A DNA stretch of 25,689 nt from Acidimicrobiia bacterium (GTDB lineage Bacteria > Actinomycetota > Acidimicrobiia > Spongiisociales > Spongiisociaceae). Position numbers and translations under genes: made by a program. Below the pieces are notes generated by a model. It saw only the letters and a program-made list of their open reading frames with translations. It made no database searches and was not told where the DNA came from. Of the stretch, positions 2,927 to 16,574 are shown piece by piece. The stretch's first letter is position 1. Each line of letters begins with the position of its first letter. The stretch spans positions 1 to 25,689 of the forward strand of contig JBFGLM010000056.1 of assembly GCA_041576165.1 (NCBI GenBank), read 5' to 3'.

Positions 2927-3000
2927 AGGGGTGTAGCTCGAACTGGTAGAGCGCCGGTCTCCAAAACCGGAGGTTGAGGGTTCGAGTCCCTCCGCCCCTG
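2927..3000 (+). tRNA. trnW: tRNA-Trp(CCA)
   Basis: Acceptor AGGGGTG/CGCCCCT, anticodon arm CCGGT-CTCCAAA-ACCGG (CCA at 2961-2963), T-arm GAGGG-TTCGAGT-CCCTC; 3' CCA not encoded; directly before secE. Confidence 0.98.
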
Positions 3001-5755: not shown

Positions 5756-5773
5756 GCCGGCCCGGGGCGCAAC

Positions 5774-5812
5774 GTGAAGGAACCCCCCACAGGTGATGGG
5801 GGGCTCCTTCGT
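5774..5812 (+). terminator. Hairpin after rplA, possible terminator
   Basis: GAAGGA-A-CCCCCCA/TGGGGGG-C-TCCTTC stem; no strong U-tract. Confidence 0.55.
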
Positions 5813-6186
5813 GACGGCGCTGAAGTGATGGCTTTGGGGGACCCGAGATTTCGGCTCTGCCAGTTCCGAGCCAGCCGGGCGTTTCGCAAGCGACCGCCAG
5901 GTTGTCGCTCGCTGAGAATCAGGCGCCATCGACAGCGGACCGCAGGGTAGGGGCTGCAATCTGCCGGATGGACACCTGTGCCCTAGCGTTGATCTCGTAC
6001 ATCCTTCGCCTGTGGACGCCCCTTCCGCCTCGCCGTCACGTAAGAGTCTCGCGCTCCCGGCCCTGGATGTCCACCAGTTTGTGCCTGCCATTTTGCCGGC
6101 TCCGGCCGCTCCCGGCCGCAGTTCGGCAGCGGGTCGTGGTCGGACGAGCACGCTCAGTGGAGGCGCCCGTGGTGGGTTGGCCCGAT

Positions 6187-6215
6187 TTCTCATTACGGGT
6201 CGAAGGCAATACGCT
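6187..6215 (+). promoter_or_regulatory. Possible sigmaA promoter for rplJL
   Basis: TTCTCA, 17-nt spacer, TACGCT, upstream of the L10 leader. Confidence 0.45.
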
Positions 6216-6251
6216 GCAAGGTACATCCAAGATCCGATCTGTTGATCGTGG

Positions 6252-6380
6252 CCGAAGACAGCCGGTGCCGGCGGAGTCAGATCCGTTCGGCGTAAGTGGT
6301 CGAGCACCCGCCCGCCGAGGTCGAATCCCCGAGGTTCGCTGTCGTAGGCAGCGGGCCTCTTTCTCGTTCGGGGGTTTTCC
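6252..6380 (+). promoter_or_regulatory. L10 ribosomal leader
   Basis: CCGAAGACAGCCGGT...CGTAAG...CCCGCCGAGGT core followed by a long hairpin ending TCGGGGTTTT, upstream of rplJ. Confidence 0.82.
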
Positions 6381-6421
6381 GGGGCGGGGGGATCGGAGTG
6401 GGATTGGAAGGAGTGCAGCAC

Positions 6422-7207
6422 ATGCCCCGACCTGAGAAGGTCCAGGCAGTTGAAGAAATCGCACAACGGTTCGAGGACGCCAACGCCGTCTTTTTGACCG
6501 AGTATCGAGGGTTGTCGGTGGCCGAACAGCAAGCGCTGCGGCGTGAGCTTCGCAGCGCCGGCGCCTCCTACAAGGTGTTGAAGATGTCTCTGGCGCGTCG
6601 GGCTGTGGCAGACCGTCCCGAGCAAGAACTGGCCAAATGGTTGTTGGGACCGACCGCAATCGCCTTCGTGGCGGGCGATCCGGTTCCTGCTGCGAAGGCG
6701 CTAGCTCAATTTGCGAACGACCATGGCGCGCTGGTTGTCAAGGCCGGAGCGCTGGCTGGGGAGGTTCTCCCCCCAGAGATGGTCGCCAAGCTCGCGACGA
6801 TCGAGCCCCGAGAGGTGCTCCTGGCCAAGATCGCCGGAGCCGCCAAAGCCCCATTGGCACAGCTGGCGGGGATGCTCGGTTCATTCACGCGTGATGCCGC
6901 GTCGGTGTTCGCTCAACTGCTCGAGAAAAAGGAACCCGAGGCCCCGGCCGAGGCGGCTCCCGAGGACGCGCCGGCCGCACCGGCCGATGACACAGACGCA
7001 GCGGGATCGGCCGAAGAGGCCGCTGCGGCCGTCGACGCAGAGGCCGTCGCCGAGCCCGAAAGCCCTGACAGCGCGGAGAGCCCGGCGAGCCCGGCGAGTT
7101 CGGAAAGCCCGGCCAGCCCAGAGACCCCAGACAGTCCTGACAGCCCTGAACCCGATGATGATGATGATGATGATGGCGACGGTGCCGCCGCCGCCGAGGA
7201 GGAATAA
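6422..7207 (+). CDS. rplJ: 50S ribosomal protein L10 with acidic low-complexity C-terminal extension
   Basis: [13 protein letters not shown]...LTEYRGLSV...GPTAIAF; GGAAGGAG RBS before ATG 6422. Confidence 0.97.
7051..7174 (+). repeat. Degenerate 9-bp (S-P-x) repeats followed by a (GAT)7 microsatellite in the rplJ tail
   Basis: AGCCCGGCG-like units; GAT x7 at 7154-7174. Confidence 0.8.
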
Positions 7208-7209
7208 CG

Positions 7210-7602
7210 ATGGCAAAGATGAAGACCGAGGAGCTCCTCGACATCTTCTCGGACATGACCGTCCTCGAACTCAAAGAGTTCCTTGATGCGTTCGAGGAGA
7301 AGTTCGATGTCACCGCGGCGGCGCCGATGGCCATGGCTGCAACGCCGGTCGGTGCCGACGGAGGCGGAGCCGCTGCGGCAGCCGAGGAAAAGGACGAGTT
7401 CGACGTCGTCCTCACCGCGGCCGGCGACAAGAAGATCCAGGTGATCAAGGAGGTCCGCGGCATCACCAGCCTCGGCCTGAAAGAGGCGAAGGACCTGGTT
7501 GACAACGCCCCCAATCCGGTGCTGGAGAGCGTCTCCAAGGAAGAGGCGGAAGCCGCCAAGGAGAAGATCGAAGCGGTCGGCGGATCGGTTGAGCTGCGCT
7601 GA
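7210..7602 (+). CDS. rplL: 50S ribosomal protein L7/L12
   Basis: [10 protein letters not shown]...[10 protein letters not shown]...[11 protein letters not shown]. Confidence 0.99.
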
Positions 7603-7619
7603 GCCAAATCACGAAGCGA

Positions 7620-7660
7620 ACACAAAGGGGCCGTTCCGTTGGGGCGGCTCCTTTTGTGTG
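7620..7660 (+). terminator. Intrinsic terminator after rplL
   Basis: AAAGGGGCCGTTCC-GTT-GGGGCGGCTCCTTTT hairpin with U-tract. Confidence 0.85.
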
Positions 7661-7706
7661 CCGTCGTGCAGACGGGCAACCGGGCACTGGCACCCCTTTG
7701 TCCCAG

Positions 7707-7752
7707 ATGAGTCAATCGACCCATGGACGGAACTAGGTGGCTCCGGCATAGT
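7707..7752 (+). promoter_or_regulatory. Cassette 1 operator-like box and promoter
   Basis: ATGAGTC-N4-GACCCAT (7707-7724); -35 TGGACG 7724-7729, 17 nt, -10 CATAGT 7747-7752. Confidence 0.7.
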
Positions 7753-7758
7753 GGCACG

Positions 7759-7835
7759 AGGAACGGAGGCGGTTCCGGGCTTCAGCCAGGAGAGTGCACC
7801 CAGCCAGGTTGCATTGGAGTCCGGGACCGCTTCAC
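7759..7835 (+). ncRNA. Putative small RNA, copy 1 (family not recognised)
   Basis: 18-bp basal stem 7766-7783/7816-7833 fully paired with G-U wobbles, 5' bulge AGCCAGGAG, upper stem capped by CAGCCAGG; own promoter. Confidence 0.68.
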
Positions 7836-7933
7836 AGGTCTCCGGGGTTCCGATGGCACTCAGCCCGACGTGGCGCTGGCCGCGGGTGGTGGGGCGGGCT
7901 GGGAGGCATCGCTTCCAGGGGCCGAGATGCTCA

Positions 7934-7979
7934 ATAAGCCGGGCGACCCATAGACGCAGGGTCGCAGGCCGGGCATAGT
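7934..7979 (+). promoter_or_regulatory. Cassette 2 operator-like box and promoter
   Basis: ATAAGCC-N4-GACCCAT (7934-7951); -35 TAGACG 7951-7956, 17 nt, -10 CATAGT 7974-7979. Confidence 0.7.
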
Positions 7980-7985
7980 GGCCGC

Positions 7986-8066
7986 CAGAACCGAAGGCGG
8001 TTCCGGACTCTCGCCAGGGGAGTGCATCTCAGCCAGGTGCACTGGAGTCCGGAACCGCTTTCTTCG
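7986..8066 (+). ncRNA. Putative small RNA, copy 2
   Basis: 19-bp basal stem 7993-8011/8044-8062, bulge CGCCAGGGG, upper stem 8021-8029/8035-8043, U-rich tail TTTCTT. Confidence 0.7.
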
Positions 8067-8087
8067 CGTCCGTCAGCGCCGCGATGA

Positions 8088-8133
8088 ATAAGCCGGGCGA
8101 CCCATGGACGCGTAACGATCGGACCGGCATAGT
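8088..8133 (+). promoter_or_regulatory. Cassette 3 operator-like box and promoter
   Basis: ATAAGCC-N4-GACCCAT (8088-8105); -35 TGGACG 8105-8110, 17 nt, -10 CATAGT 8128-8133. Confidence 0.7.
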
Positions 8134-8139
8134 GCGAAC

Positions 8140-8217
8140 ACGGAACCAGGCGGTTTCGGACTCTCAGCCAGGGGAGTGCATCAGCCAGGGTGCATTGGAG
8201 TCCGGAACCGCTTTTTC
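8140..8217 (+). ncRNA. Putative small RNA, copy 3
   Basis: 17-bp basal stem 8148-8164/8197-8213, bulge CAGCCAGGGG, upper stem 8175-8182/8189-8196 with AGCCAG loop, TTTTT tail. Confidence 0.7.
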
Positions 8218-8323
8218 CGCGTTTGGGTCGTTCATGTCGCCGTGGCTCGCCGCGCGCCACGGTCGGCATCCCGGGCCCGTGAGGCCTCGGGCTGGGCCTC
8301 GCACCGAGTCCTCAGATCTGCCC

Positions 8324-8353
8324 TTGACCTCGATCGCGAGTGCGTTGTATCGT
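8324..8353 (+). promoter_or_regulatory. Distal rpoBC promoter candidate
   Basis: TTGACC, 18-nt spacer, TATCGT. Confidence 0.6.
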
Positions 8354-8500
8354 CTTTTCCACAAGAGGCGGGTAACGCCCGCCGGTAATGACGTGTTGTA
8401 ACGGTGGCTGGCGACTCCGCAGCAGGCGACCTTCGGTTGCCGGGCAGGAGTTCGAGGCCCGCACGGCCGACGAACCGGCCGGACACATTAGTAGAACACG

Positions 8501-8538
8501 TTGTCCATTTAGGACAAGGTAGCCGCGTGTGCTATCTT
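8501..8538 (+). promoter_or_regulatory. Proximal rpoBC promoter candidate with a palindrome over the -35 region
   Basis: Extended -10 TG-C-TATCTT (8530-8538); TTGTCC-N5-GGACAA at 8501-8517. Confidence 0.5.
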
Positions 8539-8588
8539 GTCGTTTCGTCGTCTGCACGTTCCTAACCCTGGGCCCTTAGGAGGAATCG

Positions 8589-11500
8589 TTGGCTGTAGCC
8601 CGCGTCGCCGAGCGTCTGTCGTTCGCGAAAATCCCGGAAGTTCTCCCGCTCCCTGACCTACTTGCTGTTCAGCACGAATCGTTCCATTGGTTCCTCGAAG
8701 AGGGACTCGCCGACATCTTCGACCAGATTTCACCGATCGAGGATTTCTCCGGCAGCCTGGCGCTCGAACTGACCGATCACCGCTTCGGTGATCCGCTCCA
8801 GTCGATCGAAGAGTGCAAAGAACGAGACGCCAACTACTCGCGGCCGCTGTTCGTGACTGCGCGGTTCGTCAATCGCCAGACCGGGGAGATCAAAGAACAG
8901 CAAGTGTTCCTCGGGGACTTCCCGATGATGACCGGCAACGGCACCTTCATCATCAACGGTACCGAGCGCGTTGTCGTATCACAGCTGGTCCGCTCACCCG
9001 GTGTGTACTTCGATCAGACGCTCGACAAGACCTCGGATGTGGACATTTTCACGGCCAAGATCATTCCCGGCCGCGGCGCGTGGCTTGAGTTCGACACCGA
9101 CAAACGAGACACCATCGGCGTACGGGTCGACCGCAAGCGCCGCCAGTACGTATCGGCCTTCTTGCGAGCGTTGGACATCGCCGACAGCGACGAGGAGATC
9201 CTTGAACTCTTCGACGGTGCCGAGTCGATCCGGATGACGCTCGAGCGTGACACTGCGGTTGACAAAGATGAGGCCCTGCTCGACCTCTACCGCAAACTCC
9301 GACCGGGCGAGCCGACGACTGTGGAGTCGGCCCGGGGTCTCATTCAGACGCTGTTCAAGAACCCCAAGCGGTATGACCTCACCCGAGTCGGTCGGTACAA
9401 GCTCAATCAGAAGTTCGACCTGCCCGACGACTATCGGACGGACGACGGCTTGCTCAGCGAGGAGGACATCGTCGATGCAATTCGGTATCTCGTGCATCTG
9501 CATCAGGGTGAGCAGAAGTTCACCACAACGCGCGGCACGGAAATCGACGTCCGGACCGATGACATCGACCATTTCGGGAACCGCCGCATCCGGACTGTGG
9601 GCGAACTGATCCAGAATCAGGTGCGAGTCGGGTTGACCCGTCTCGAGCGGGTCGTCAAGGAACGGATGACCACCCAGGACCCCGAGTCGATCACGCCACA
9701 GAGTTTGATCAACATCCGCCCGGTGGTCGCCTCCATCAAAGAGTTCTTCGGCACGAGCCAGCTGAGCCAGTTCATGGACCAGCCGAACCCGCTCGCCGGG
9801 CTCACTCACCGGCGCCGGCTGTCGGCATTGGGTCCCGGGGGCCTCTCGCGGGAGCGGGCCGGTTTCGAGGTGCGAGACGTTCATCCCTCTCACTACGGCC
9901 GTATGTGCCCGATCGAGACTCCGGAGGGACCGAACATCGGTCTGATCGGGTCGCTCGCCACGTTCGCCCGGGTCAACCGCTACGGGTTCATCGAGACACC
10001 GTACCGCCGAGTGCAGGACGGCAAGGTCGGCAACAAAGTGGCCTATCTGACTGCAGCCGAGGAGGAGCGGTACGTCATCGCTCAGGCCAACGCGCCCCTC
10101 AGCGAGGACGGGAGCTTCGTCAACGACCGGGTGCTGGTCCGGCGGGCCGGTGGTGAGGTCGACTATGTGACGCCTGCAGAGGTCGATTACATGGACGTTT
10201 CCCCGAAGCAGCTGGTGTCGGTTTCGACCGCCCTGATCCCGTTCCTGGAGCATGACGACGCCAACCGAGCGCTCATGGGCTCCAACATGCAGCGTCAAGC
10301 GGTCCCGTTGTTGCGTTCGGACGCTCCCCTGGTCGGTACCGGCGTGGAGCGGCGGGCCGCACAGGACTCGGGTGACATGGTCATCAGCCCCGTGTCGGGC
10401 GAGGTGACCGAGGTCACCGGCGACCACATCGTCATCAAGGACAAGTCGAACACCAAGCACACCTTCGATCTGAAGAAGTTCGAGCGGTCCAACCAGGGGA
10501 CCTCGATCAATCAGAAACCGATCGTGGTTCCGGGCCAGAAGGTGAAGGAGGGTGAGGTCCTGGCGGATGGCCCCTCAACCGATCTCGGAGAGCTGGCGCT
10601 CGGCCGCAACCTGCTGGTGGCGTTCATGCCGTGGGAGGGCCACAACTTCGAGGATGCGATCATCCTCAGCGAGCGCCTCGTCAAAGATGACACGCTCACC
10701 TCGATCCATATCGAGGAGCACGAGATCGACGCCCGCGACACCAAATTGGGCGCGGAGGAGATCACCCGGGACATCCCCAATGTCGCCGAGGAGGTACTGC
10801 GCGACCTCGACGAGGACGGCATCATCCGGATCGGTGCCGAGGTCGGCCCCGGTGACTATCTCGTCGGGAAGGTCACGCCTAAGGGTGAGACCGAACTCAC
10901 CCCCGAAGAGCGTCTTCTGCGTGCGATCTTCGGTGAAAAGGCCCGCGAAGTCCGTGATACCTCGCTCAAGGTGCCGCACGGTGAGTCGGGCAAGGTCATA
11001 GACGTCAAGGTGTTCCGTCGGGAAGAGGGCTTCGACCTGCCCCCCGGGGTGAACGAGCTGGTCCGGGTGTACGTGGCGAGCCAGCGCAAGTTCTCAGAGG
11101 GCGACAAGCTCTCCGGACGCCACGGCAACAAGGGCGTGATCGCCAAGATCTTGCCCGAAGAGGACATGCCCTTCATGAAAGACGGTACGCCGGTCGACAT
11201 CATCCTGTCGCCGCTCGGTGTTCCGTCTCGCATGAACCTGGGCCAGGTGCTCGAGACGCACTTGGGCTGGGCGGCGGCGCAGGGATGGGAACCCTTCGAT
11301 GACCCGAGTCCGCTGCAAGGAGGGGCCGAGCCCTGGACCAAGGTGGCTACCCCGGTGTTCGACGGGGCTCAGGAGGACGAGATCTCTCAGGTCCTGGCCC
11401 GCACCCTGCCGAACCGGGATGACGAGAAGATGGTCGACGAGAACGGCAAGGCCGTGCTGATCGACGGCCGGACCGGGGTGCCGTTCGATACCCCGATCAC

Positions 11501-11951
11501 GGTGGGATACATCTACATCCTCAAACTGGTCCACCTCGTGGATGACAAGATCCACGCTCGTTCGACCGGACCGTACTCGATGATCACCCAGCAGCCGCTG
11601 GGCGGGAAGGCCCAGTTCGGCGGTCAGCGGTTCGGTGAGATGGAGGTGTGGGCCCTCGAGGCCTACGGCGCTGCGTATGCCCTACAGGAGCTCCTCACCA
11701 TCAAATCCGACGACGTCATGGGACGGGTCAAGGTCTACGAGGCGATCGTCAAGGGCGAGAACATCCCCGAACCCGGAATCCCGGAGTCTTTCAAGGTCCT
11801 GATCAAAGAGATGCAGAGCCTCTGCCTCAACGTCGAGATGCTCTCGGCTGGTGAGGAAGTGGAGCTGAAGGAGCTCGACGAGGACGTGTTCCGCACGGCC
11901 GAGTCGCTCGGGATTGATCTGTCGCGGCCGGAGCGTCGCGAGGACACCTGA
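8589..11951 (+). CDS. rpoB: DNA-directed RNA polymerase subunit beta
   Basis: [21 protein letters not shown], rifampicin-resistance region SQLSQFMDQ...[34 protein letters not shown]; TTG start after AGGAGG. Confidence 0.99.
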
Positions 11952-15924: not shown

Positions 15925-15964
15925 ACATGTGGAAGCCCCGGAGGTGATCCGGGGCTTCCGTGTT
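15925..15964 (+). terminator. Intrinsic terminator after rpoC
   Basis: Perfect stem GGAAGCCCCGGA-GGTGA-TCCGGGGCTTCC followed by GTGTT. Confidence 0.8.
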
Positions 15965-16034
15965 GACTACCCGCGACGCACGATGGAACGAATCCCTTCG
16001 GGATGCCGTCCAATTCCGCGTGACACGAGGCGCG

Positions 16035-16574
16035 GTGAGCGAACGACCTGAAGCCGAATTGGTTCGGCGGGCGGCAGCAGCGGATGTGGCCGCGTTCACC
16101 GAGCTCGTTCGACGCCACGATGGAGCGCAGCGAGCTTACGCCTACCGGTTCCTGGCGGGCGACTTCGCGCTGATGGATGACGCCCTGCAGGAGGCGTACA
16201 TCGAGGCGTTCCGCAACCTCGGGCGCTTCCGCGGCGAGTCGGCGTTCGCGACGTGGCATCGTGCACAACTGTTGCATCGACGCCCTCCGGCGCCGGTGGG
16301 AGGTGGCCGCACCGGACGTGAGTCCCACCCCGGGTGTCGATCATTTGGATTCTGTCGTGACCCGGGTGGCGGTGGCAGGCGCCCTCGACGGCCTGCCGGC
16401 GGTGCATCGAGGCGTTGTCCTGCTTATCGACGTGCTCGGACTCGCCTACCGCGAAGCGGCCGCGGTGCTGGGTATGCGGTCGGCACGGTCCGTTCCCGGC
16501 TCGCTCGGACCCGAGCTGTGTTGCGGGAAGCTCTGGGGGAGCTGCATGTATCAGCTCTGGAGCCACCTTGGTGA
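16035..16574 (+). pseudogene. ECF sigma factor with two frameshifts
   Basis: Region 2 (DDALQEAYIEAF...FRGESAFATW) is in one frame, IVHNCCIDALRRR...LAYREAAAVLG in a second, and AVGTVRSRLAR back in the first; shifts near 16256 and 16475. Confidence 0.85.

Follow-up and report, generated by a model that had tools for sequence, protein, structure and literature searches.

A 25,689-nt stretch of DNA from an Acidimicrobiia bacterium (assembly GCA_041576165.1, contig JBFGLM010000056.1; hereafter the window) was analyzed, and the subject of this study is an array of three diverged cassettes that lies between rplL (ribosomal protein) and rpoB (RNA polymerase); the cassettes resemble genes for a small structured RNA. 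The gene order in the window, nusG–rplK–rplA–rplJ–rplL–rpoB–rpoC … rpsL–rpsG–fusA–tuf as assigned with Pfam, is that of the usual cluster. The source assembly, designated G000, comprises 5.1 Mb in 161 contigs and is 96.5% complete. Three further designations are used below: G010 for a genome of the same family, L113 for a metagenome contig, and G095 for a genome of another family.

Three Diverged Cassettes in the rplL–rpoB Spacer

The three cassettes occupy approximately positions 7706–7840, 7933–8068, and 8087–8221, all on the + strand (Table 1), and were located by a repeat finder and by reading of the sequence where the original prediction had placed them, behind the rplL terminator. Each consists of a 25-nt upstream block and a member of a 74-nt repeat family (7759–7832, 7987–8060, and 8140–8213, with 100, 76, and 66% ungapped identity), the members being spaced by 228 and 153 nt. 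In a gapped alignment of 175 columns, the three cassettes showed 79% identity per column.

By BLAST of the whole assembly, only the three local copies were found, the next matches having E values >1, and a search of it with R1, a covariance model built from these copies, returned only the three and the reverse strand of copy 2. In detail, cassette 1 scored 93.4 bits with R1 and 85.8 bits with model R2 (7762–7840), while cassettes 2 and 3 scored 98 bits (7990–8068) and 87.9 bits (8144–8221) with R1; the terminator-like hairpin behind rplL gave a weak, generic hairpin match of 15.8 bits. Many genome-wide copies had been named beforehand as the mark of a dispersed repetitive extragenic palindrome (REP) or miniature inverted-repeat transposable element (MITE); this candidate was rejected, as there are only three copies in G000, all in one spacer.

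Table 1. Predicted features of the cassette array and of its neighbors in the window.
Feature	Position	Strand	Basis and details
Cassette 1 promoter region	7706..7752	+	block 7706–7730; −35-like TGGACG 7724–7729; 17-nt spacer; −10-like CATAGT 7747–7752
Cassette 1 RNA (predicted)	7759..7840	+	hairpin 7766–7833; bulge GCCAGGAG 7785–7792; weak U-tail; fold z −3.67
Cassette 2 promoter region	7933..7979	+	block 7933–7957; −35-like TAGACG 7951–7956; −10-like CATAGT 7974–7979
Cassette 2 RNA (predicted)	7986..8068	+	hairpin 7994–8061; bulge GCCAGGGG 8013–8020; tail UUUCUU; fold z −4.51
Cassette 3 promoter region	8087..8133	+	block 8087–8111; −35-like TGGACG 8105–8110; −10-like CATAGT 8128–8133
Cassette 3 RNA (predicted)	8140..8221	+	hairpin 8147–8214; bulge GCCAGGGG 8167–8174; tail UUUUU; fold z −5.22
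rplL (ribosomal protein L7/L12), upstream neighbor	7210..7602	+	Pfam Ribosomal_L12 E 3e-29, L12_N E 3e-15
Terminator-like hairpin of rplL with a T run behind it, 5′ of the array	7624..7658	+	sequence reading
Promoter-like site of rpoB, TTGACC-18-TATCGT, 3′ of the array	8324..8353	+	consensus scan
rpoB, downstream neighbor	8589..11951	+	six RNA polymerase Rpb2 Pfam domains

Promoter-Like Regions of the Cassettes

The upstream regions were compared among six sequences from four genomes, namely the three G000 copies and one copy each from G010, L113, and G095. The −35 and −10 hexamers stood 17 nt apart in all six, and positions A2 and T6 of the −10 element were invariant (CATAGT in three sequences, then CAATAT, CACACT, and TATGGT). 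Between genomes, mean identity was 0.76 for the −35 element, 1.00 for the CCCA before it and 0.56 for the −10 element, vs. 0.27, a random level, for the spacer and 0.37 for the 16 nt after the −10. Since the hexamers are conserved and their distance is fixed while the spacer is random, these words are better read as a promoter than as an RNA motif. This pattern of conservation is that of a selected sigma-70-type promoter, from which we infer promoter activity. The earlier description of −35 T(G/A)GACG and −10 CATAGT elements exactly 17 nt apart with a diverged spacer thus held for the three copies, and its spacing extended to the other three sequences.

Four of the five rod-type copies have an A at 7 nt past the −10 element, followed by a conserved GAAC. 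The cassettes show the 16–18-nt spacing and the A2 and T6 of the −10 by which sigma-70-type promoters are judged, yet they match the consensus at 8 of 12 positions. In G000, the promoter words at the correct spacing occurred in the three cassettes only; two look-alikes, at window position 2720 (− strand) and C42:10503, did not stand up to reading. The conserved AAT..N..CCCA block before the −35 may bind a regulator. Over the 22 nt upstream of the CCCA that were compared, this block is a word other than the GacA/UvrY activating sequence.

Predicted Fold and Strand of the RNA

Downstream of each promoter-like region, a rod of about 78 nt is predicted, with a basal stem of 17–19 pairs, a 5′ bulge of 9–10 nt, an upper stem of 5–9 pairs, and a small loop, as had been anticipated. 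The minimum free energies (MFE) of copies 1, 2, and 3 were −45.3, −49.9, and −47.5 kcal/mol, and 1, 0, and 0 of 200 dinucleotide shuffles, respectively, folded as well. The opposite strand of copy 1 folded no better than its shuffles (z −0.13, 93/200). The 5′ end of the cassette 1 RNA was set from the position of its −10 element. Runs of 3–5 U follow copies 2 and 3 and the G010 and L113 hairpins and are partly paired with 5′ purines, which agrees with the U-tails earlier assigned to copies 2 and 3.

Pairing was then quantified in a model-fitted alignment (A8) of five full-length sequences, the three G000 copies, G010, and L113. In it, 97.6% of 123 cells form standard pairs, and six of 25 pairs (8 cells) change on both sides. 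None of 500 column shuffles reached the paired percentage or the covariation score of A8, and pairing fell to 26–48% when the 3′ partners were slid by 1–3 columns. As to the strand, 23 G-U vs. 1 A-C were counted among the 123 cells on the modeled strand, which was also 6–16 kcal/mol more stable than its complement in all five sequences. Further, the G-U bias follows the cassette strand in L113, where that strand is antisense to rplL and rpoB. These results assign the strand signal to an RNA read from the strand on which the cassette lies, in line with the + strand RNA that had been proposed from G-U exchanges among the copies.

The unpaired bulge, GCCAGGRG, was invariant across the sequences compared. 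The three G000 copies carry GCCAGG a second time, in the apical loop; there it is not kept in G010, L113, and G095. No open reading frame (ORF) is common to the copies: copy 2 has none of at least 12 codons on either strand, those of the other copies differ in frame and end, and the recurring peptides (..HSPG) are only the translated bulge. A small protein gene was therefore rejected, no ORF being conserved in frame among the copies, and the absence of a credible ORF noted originally was thus confirmed.

Relatives in Other Genomes

The rplL–rpoB spacer measures 986 nt in G000 vs. 308–520 nt in 25 other genomes of the family, and the cassette was absent from the spacers of all 25, in which rplL and rpoB stand on one locus. 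These spacers share no BLAST similarity with that of G000 at E 0.01, so the insertion point could not be mapped to the base.

In G010, a single copy was found by R1 (36.1 bits) and by BLAST, upstream of rpoB and in the same orientation; rplL of this genome lies at the end of a different contig, so that the assembly places the cassette next to rpoB but not next to rplL. The G010 bulge, GCCAGGGGGG, contains no GGA. Upstream of this single cassette, a further strong terminator-like hairpin is present (L012, − strand 1942–1640; G010:C508), preceded by about 200 nt with no obvious gene, after which the contig ends. Further G010 cassettes may have broken the assembly.

A search pattern was composed from the hairpin only, which left the promoter as an independent test. 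Among species-representative genomes, the pattern gave 24 stretches, one of which was confirmed by the model (L065); since its score and aligned letters are those of the G010 copy, the two were counted as one. In the metagenome contigs, scanned by exact pattern, 47 stretches were obtained and one, L113, was confirmed (48.3 bits), the remaining five model matches having E values of 0.17–0.7. L113 is collinear with the window and carries its cassette in the rplL–rpoB spacer but inverted, so that the promoter-like end faces rpoB and the hairpin converges on rplL. The N-terminus of RpoB is 86.5% identical to that of G000 in L113 and 88% in G010, vs. 70–78% in the other family members. By this comparison, the carriers G000, G010, and L113 form a subclade.

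With model R2, 150 genomes of the order yielded three weak matches, one of them true: G095, of another family, has a single distant copy in a different intergenic region, not near rpoB. There, AAATGGGTCCGGCGACCCATGG, CCC, a 17-nt spacer, and TATGGT stand about 100-odd nt upstream of GCCAGGGGAGUG. The upstream region shares a 12-nt word with the upstream block of copy 3, and the 5′ arm and bulge of the hairpin are about 70% identical to those of L113, while the 3′ arm has changed to match its own 5′ arm. Because the upstream block, the 17-nt spacing, and the bulge are shared and the 3′ arm compensates, the G095 copy is regarded as a true distant relative. It has a 5′ extension of about 100 nt (L117 1360–1560, G095:C3), which in the MFE fold pairs with the 5′ arm of the hairpin; GCCAGGGGA is then single-stranded and is followed by a different terminator hairpin, so that this copy could adopt either of two mutually exclusive folds. 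With R3, a model that includes G095, nothing further was found over 150 genomes of the class.

Several other matches were rejected, namely L118 and L119 (coding-looking and with no upstream block), L125 (coding-looking), L131 (inside a response-regulator frame), L130 (a plain terminator), and L139 (no bulge motif), as well as L132–L134, which were judged from the model alignments alone. BLAST of 61 related genomes matched three, one of which, G043, matched over 38 nt of the spacer that separates cassettes 1 and 2; no conclusion here is based on that match. The rejected L130 (1501–1545; G331:C8, of another family) is a bidirectional terminator whose stem words, GGCGGUCCCGGAC and GUCCGGGACCGCU, are nearly those of the basal stem of the RNA. 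To judge from these words, an ordinary terminator may have been the origin of the rod, which would then have acquired its bulge and upper helix by insertion.

Searches for Known RNAs and Mobile Elements

At gathering score, Rfam 15 reported for the whole window only a tRNA at 2927–3000. In the region 7550–8650, searched with E up to 10, five chance-level matches of 15–18 bits were obtained vs. cut-offs of 53–80, so that no known family took the cassettes. Specifically, 6S RNA (RF00013) and 6C RNA (RF01066) gave no match in the region or in the G000 genome, which, together with the search for signal recognition particle (SRP) RNA described below, bears out the original exclusion of 6C, 6S, and SRP RNA. 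No match was found in collections of plasmids, phages, and viral contigs (0 stretches for the hairpin pattern in viral contigs), and these searches gave no link to a mobile element. Hfq (PF17209) was not found in the G000 assembly. In the titles and abstracts returned by a literature search, which included small RNAs of Acidimicrobiia, no description of such an RNA appeared.

SRP RNA was not found in G000 with RF00169 or RF01854, nor in G010 with RF00169, whereas RF00169 is present in G001, G002, G020, and G095. In G002 (L127), the SRP RNA gene lies between tRNA-Ser and tadA. G000 retains tRNA-Ser (C94:1–4000, L129), but the sequence downstream differs and tadA was not found. Because both tadA and what follows tRNA-Ser are missing from G000, its lack of SRP RNA is probably due to an assembly gap or a rearrangement. 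A 17-nt SRP-like word at C1:78787 was dismissed as coding region.

Neighboring Features

The promoter-like site of rpoB (Table 1) was the sole site reported by the consensus promoter scan, and on reading of the sequence its TTGACC and TATCGT words also stand upstream of rpoB in G010 and L113. A leader box of rpoB at about 8502–8552, downstream of the array, is conserved with G010 and L113. Immediately 5′ of the rpoB Shine-Dalgarno sequence, a small hairpin keeps its position in G000, G010, and L113, with differing sequence.

Elsewhere in the cluster, the rplA–rplJ spacer is long (~600 nt; window 5756–6420) and contains a 14-bp hairpin at 5776–5810, with no Rfam match to an L10 leader in it. 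The L10 domain begins near residue 43 of the ORF at 6296–7207, and this L10 protein has a long C-terminal extension. Two genes for sigma factors of the extracytoplasmic function type flank the cluster, one at 1866–2432, before the tRNA and nusG, and one at 15960–16574, directly after rpoC.

Discussion

The Cassettes as Probable Genes for a Structured RNA

In this study, the array between rplL and rpoB is interpreted as three tandem duplicates of a self-contained gene for a non-coding RNA of about 80–90 nt whose family has not yet been described, an explanation that we hold to be probable on balance. That the cassettes are independently transcribed structured RNA genes is the firmer part of it and, judged from sequence, quite likely; that the bulge acts in trans as proposed below is tentative and somewhat short of an even chance. 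The promoter-like part, the fold, and the strand bias persist while orientation and location change, and rpoB keeps its own conserved promoter-like site and leader box downstream; for both reasons the cassettes are regarded as self-contained genes. Likewise, the inversion in L113 and the position away from rpoB in G095 argue that the cassette is not part of an rplL–rpoB transcript. The RNA is best read as clade-restricted and as a new family of a familiar kind, that of multicopy sibling small RNA (sRNA) genes.

Each gene would have a promoter for the housekeeping sigma factor, with a −35 element T(G/A)GAC(G), a 17-nt spacer, and a −10 element CAnnnT, and, ahead of the −35, the invariant CCCA and AAT-containing block as a possible regulator site. 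Transcription would start about 7 nt past the −10 element, and a 5′ leader of 8–10 nt (..GAAC..) would lead into one long hairpin, whose G+C-rich basal stem, with the U run, probably doubles as the terminator. Between the two helices, the purine-rich 5′ bulge GCCAGGRG is taken as the working surface, because it never varies and is never paired. It might act in trans, with either a C/U-rich RNA that pairs with it or a bound protein that recognizes purine runs of Shine-Dalgarno type as its partner, and three copies would raise the dose. Transcription, the RNA ends, termination, and action in trans are what we infer from the letters, and the partner of the bulge is a guess. As to base-pairing targets, no conserved one emerged, a 6-nt match in the rpoB leader not being conserved in G010.

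Several observations weigh against this interpretation. The comparative set is tiny, with four genomes and six sequences, three of which are paralogues, and A8 was fitted to the model, which inflates its pairing counts. The opposite strands of copies 2 and 3 fold well too (z −4.23 and −3.88). The consensus promoter scan, with a threshold of 9, reported none of the three cassette promoters, which have 8/12 matches; its terminator part called none of the three hairpins, the loop limit of 3–8 excluding bulged hairpins; and copy 1 has almost no U-tail (UU only). As to the proposed pairing, the genome shows no excess of the bulge's complement, with 27 sites elsewhere vs. a mean of 41.6 for permuted words, and these sites lie mostly inside long open frames. 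A seed in an internal bulge clamped by long helices is also unusual for base-pairing sRNAs. Finally, apart from the G095 copy, no member of the family turned up among 150 sampled genomes of the order or 150 of the class, and long-term selection is accordingly conjectural.

Comparison With Known RNAs

Sibling sRNA genes with their own promoters and terminators are familiar from LhrC1–5 of Listeria, Qrr1–5 of Vibrio, and PrrF1/2 and RsmX/Y/Z of Pseudomonas. The cassettes resemble them in that the gene exists in several diverged and partly tandem copies, each of which has a predicted promoter and a terminator-like hairpin to itself, and in presenting a short conserved unpaired motif on a stem-loop. 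They differ in showing no similarity of sequence or model and in a motif that is purine-rich and lies in an internal bulge, while LhrC has C/U-rich loops and the Rsm RNAs have many GGA loops. Qrr genes have a sigma-54 (−24/−12) promoter and depend on Hfq, whereas the promoter here is of −35/−10 type with 17-nt spacing and no Hfq was found in G000. Of the likeness to RsmXYZ/CsrB or Qrr suggested originally, the gene organization therefore stands and the defining features of both do not.

6S RNA is roughly 180 nt long with a two-sided central bubble, and 6C RNA has two C-rich loops; the RNA here is about 80 nt with a single, one-sided, G-rich bulge. Like SRP and 6S RNA, it is rod-like with an asymmetric internal loop, in which setting the words CCAGG and CAGCC recur, but the second motif is not conserved in G010, L113, and G095. 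Its apical loops are CAGCC, AGCCAG, CGGG, and AUAC, none of them the GNRA of SRP RNA. With 6C RNA of Actinobacteria (PMC5014011), the present RNA shares small size, extensive structure, a housekeeping-type promoter, here predicted, unpaired nucleotides that are conserved on hairpins, and an organism in which no Hfq was found. Links to CsrA, SRP, and 6S RNA are weak or absent.

With intrinsic terminators, the hairpins share a G+C-rich basal stem followed by U's in copies 2 and 3, G010, and L113, and the stem resembles the L130 terminator. What sets them apart is the promoter-like region in front, the conserved bulge, and the upper helix, as well as the inverted position in L113 and the location outside the operon in G095.

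Alternative Explanations

The cassettes might instead be cis-acting modules of promoter and attenuator for rpoBC, each adding a promoter to rpoB from which most transcripts would end at the hairpin, with read-through set by the level of RNA polymerase or of Nus factors feeding rpoBC. The E. coli rplL–rpoB spacer has a partial terminator and is subject to autogenous control, and its attenuator and RNase III site occupy the same spacer as the array. In G000 and G010, the cassettes do lie directly upstream of rpoB in the same orientation; their hairpins are terminator-like, and the missing U-tail of copy 1 makes read-through plausible. However, the L113 cassette points away from rpoB and the G095 copy is not near it; downstream of the array, a conserved promoter-like site and leader box belong to rpoB itself in G000, G010, and L113; the cassette is missing in all 25 other genomes of the family whose spacer is assembled; and a plain attenuator needs no invariant unpaired bulge. 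Such a role is thus considered unlikely.

A second alternative gives the RNAs a named partner: they would be decoys whose Shine-Dalgarno-like bulge binds the FliW-type CsrA of the lineage, as CsrB and RsmXYZ do in Proteobacteria. CsrB/Rsm sponges have many exposed GGA motifs. Their likeness to the RNA here lies in a multicopy organization, in a purine motif that is Shine-Dalgarno-like, contains GGA in most copies, and is unpaired on a hairpin, and in the presence of CsrA in both genomes with the rpoB-linked form. G000 encodes flgL–fliW–csrA, and CsrA occurs in four of 29 family genomes (G000, G004, G005, and G010), which include both cassette carriers, vs. none of the 25 with an assembled cassette-free spacer; in G004 and G005, rplL was not found in the assembly, so the cassette could not be scored there. 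Within the family, FliW-type CsrA was found in the subclade of the carriers alone. Five of the six bulges have GGA.

The co-occurrence of CsrA and the cassette, however, probably reflects that single clade, given the RpoB identities above. The bulge of G010 lacks GGA, each RNA exposes at most one, and the second GCCAGG of G000 carries none. Further, CsrA was found in 0/22 genomes of the family of G095, which has the RNA, and the RNA in 0/40 CsrA-carrying genomes of other families or genera. The CsrA here is linked to FliW, and systems of this type are described as operating with no antagonist sRNA (PMC4894983; bioRxiv 10.1101/2020.07.02.184341), which also speaks against decoys. We therefore regard CsrA decoys as quite improbable, and the same low probability is given to the broader formulation, that the RNAs are Shine-Dalgarno mimics titrating a reader of purine-rich ribosome-binding sites, with FliW-type CsrA as the top candidate.

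Regarding CsrA itself, a flgL-like gene, fliW, and csrA stand in a row in G000:C82 (L120 164–1740), as in the FliW–CsrA module of Bacillus type, and CsrA occurs in 48 of 401 genomes of the order. No major flagellin gene was found in the G000 assembly (FlgL only), which made a comparison of its leader with the bulge impossible.

Thirdly, the hairpins might be processing or stability signals, for example RNase III sites, in a long rplL–rpoB co-transcript, the upstream words then not being promoters. The two helices of about 26–28 pairs in total around an asymmetric internal loop resemble phage T7 RNase III sites, and the E. coli rplL–rpoB spacer is processed by RNase III, but this is very improbable here: the G-U-bearing strand of L113 is antisense to rplL and rpoB, a strong terminator-like hairpin of rplL precedes the array, the invariant 17-nt spacing, A2/T6, and random-level spacer fit a promoter, and the G095 copy lies outside this operon.

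Least credible of all are a DNA-level element (REP/MITE-like or a protein-binding palindrome), which the tandem, palindromic copies and their differing orientation between genomes recall but which the three copies in one spacer, the empty plasmid, phage, and viral-contig searches, and the 23 to 1 excess of G-U over A-C oppose, and a very divergent SRP RNA, which would account for the missing RF00169 match in G000 and G010 (present in 4/4 other genomes tried) but is opposed by the lack of any SRP match to the region with E values allowed up to 10 or of a GNRA loop on reading, by the coexistence of a normal SRP RNA and the element in G095, and by the likewise missing tadA of G000, which makes an assembly gap the probable cause of the absence.

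Significance

All computational tests by which the original prediction could have been refuted instead favored it: no Rfam family matched at gathering score, the assembly holds only the three local copies, and the stems covary among the sequences aligned. The regulatory RNAs of Acidimicrobiia, a widespread and mostly uncultured class of Actinobacteria, are essentially uncharted, and the cassettes offer a clean candidate: the promoter-like region is conserved, the rod covaries, the strand signature is clear, and one unpaired motif is invariant, all in a host where no Hfq was found. They give a concrete RNA to seek in metatranscriptomes, with a defined 8-nt surface. The reach is small, the RNA having been found in four genomes or contigs only, and, should the bulge not prove to hold CsrA or the ribosome, the finding is a good lead mainly of interest to specialists and no general surprise. 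If the decoy proposal were true, sRNA partners of CsrA would be known from Actinobacteria, and for a CsrA linked to FliW, for the first time, and, with the RNA genes beside the cluster for the ribosome and RNA polymerase, the dose of the decoy could tie to growth-rate control.

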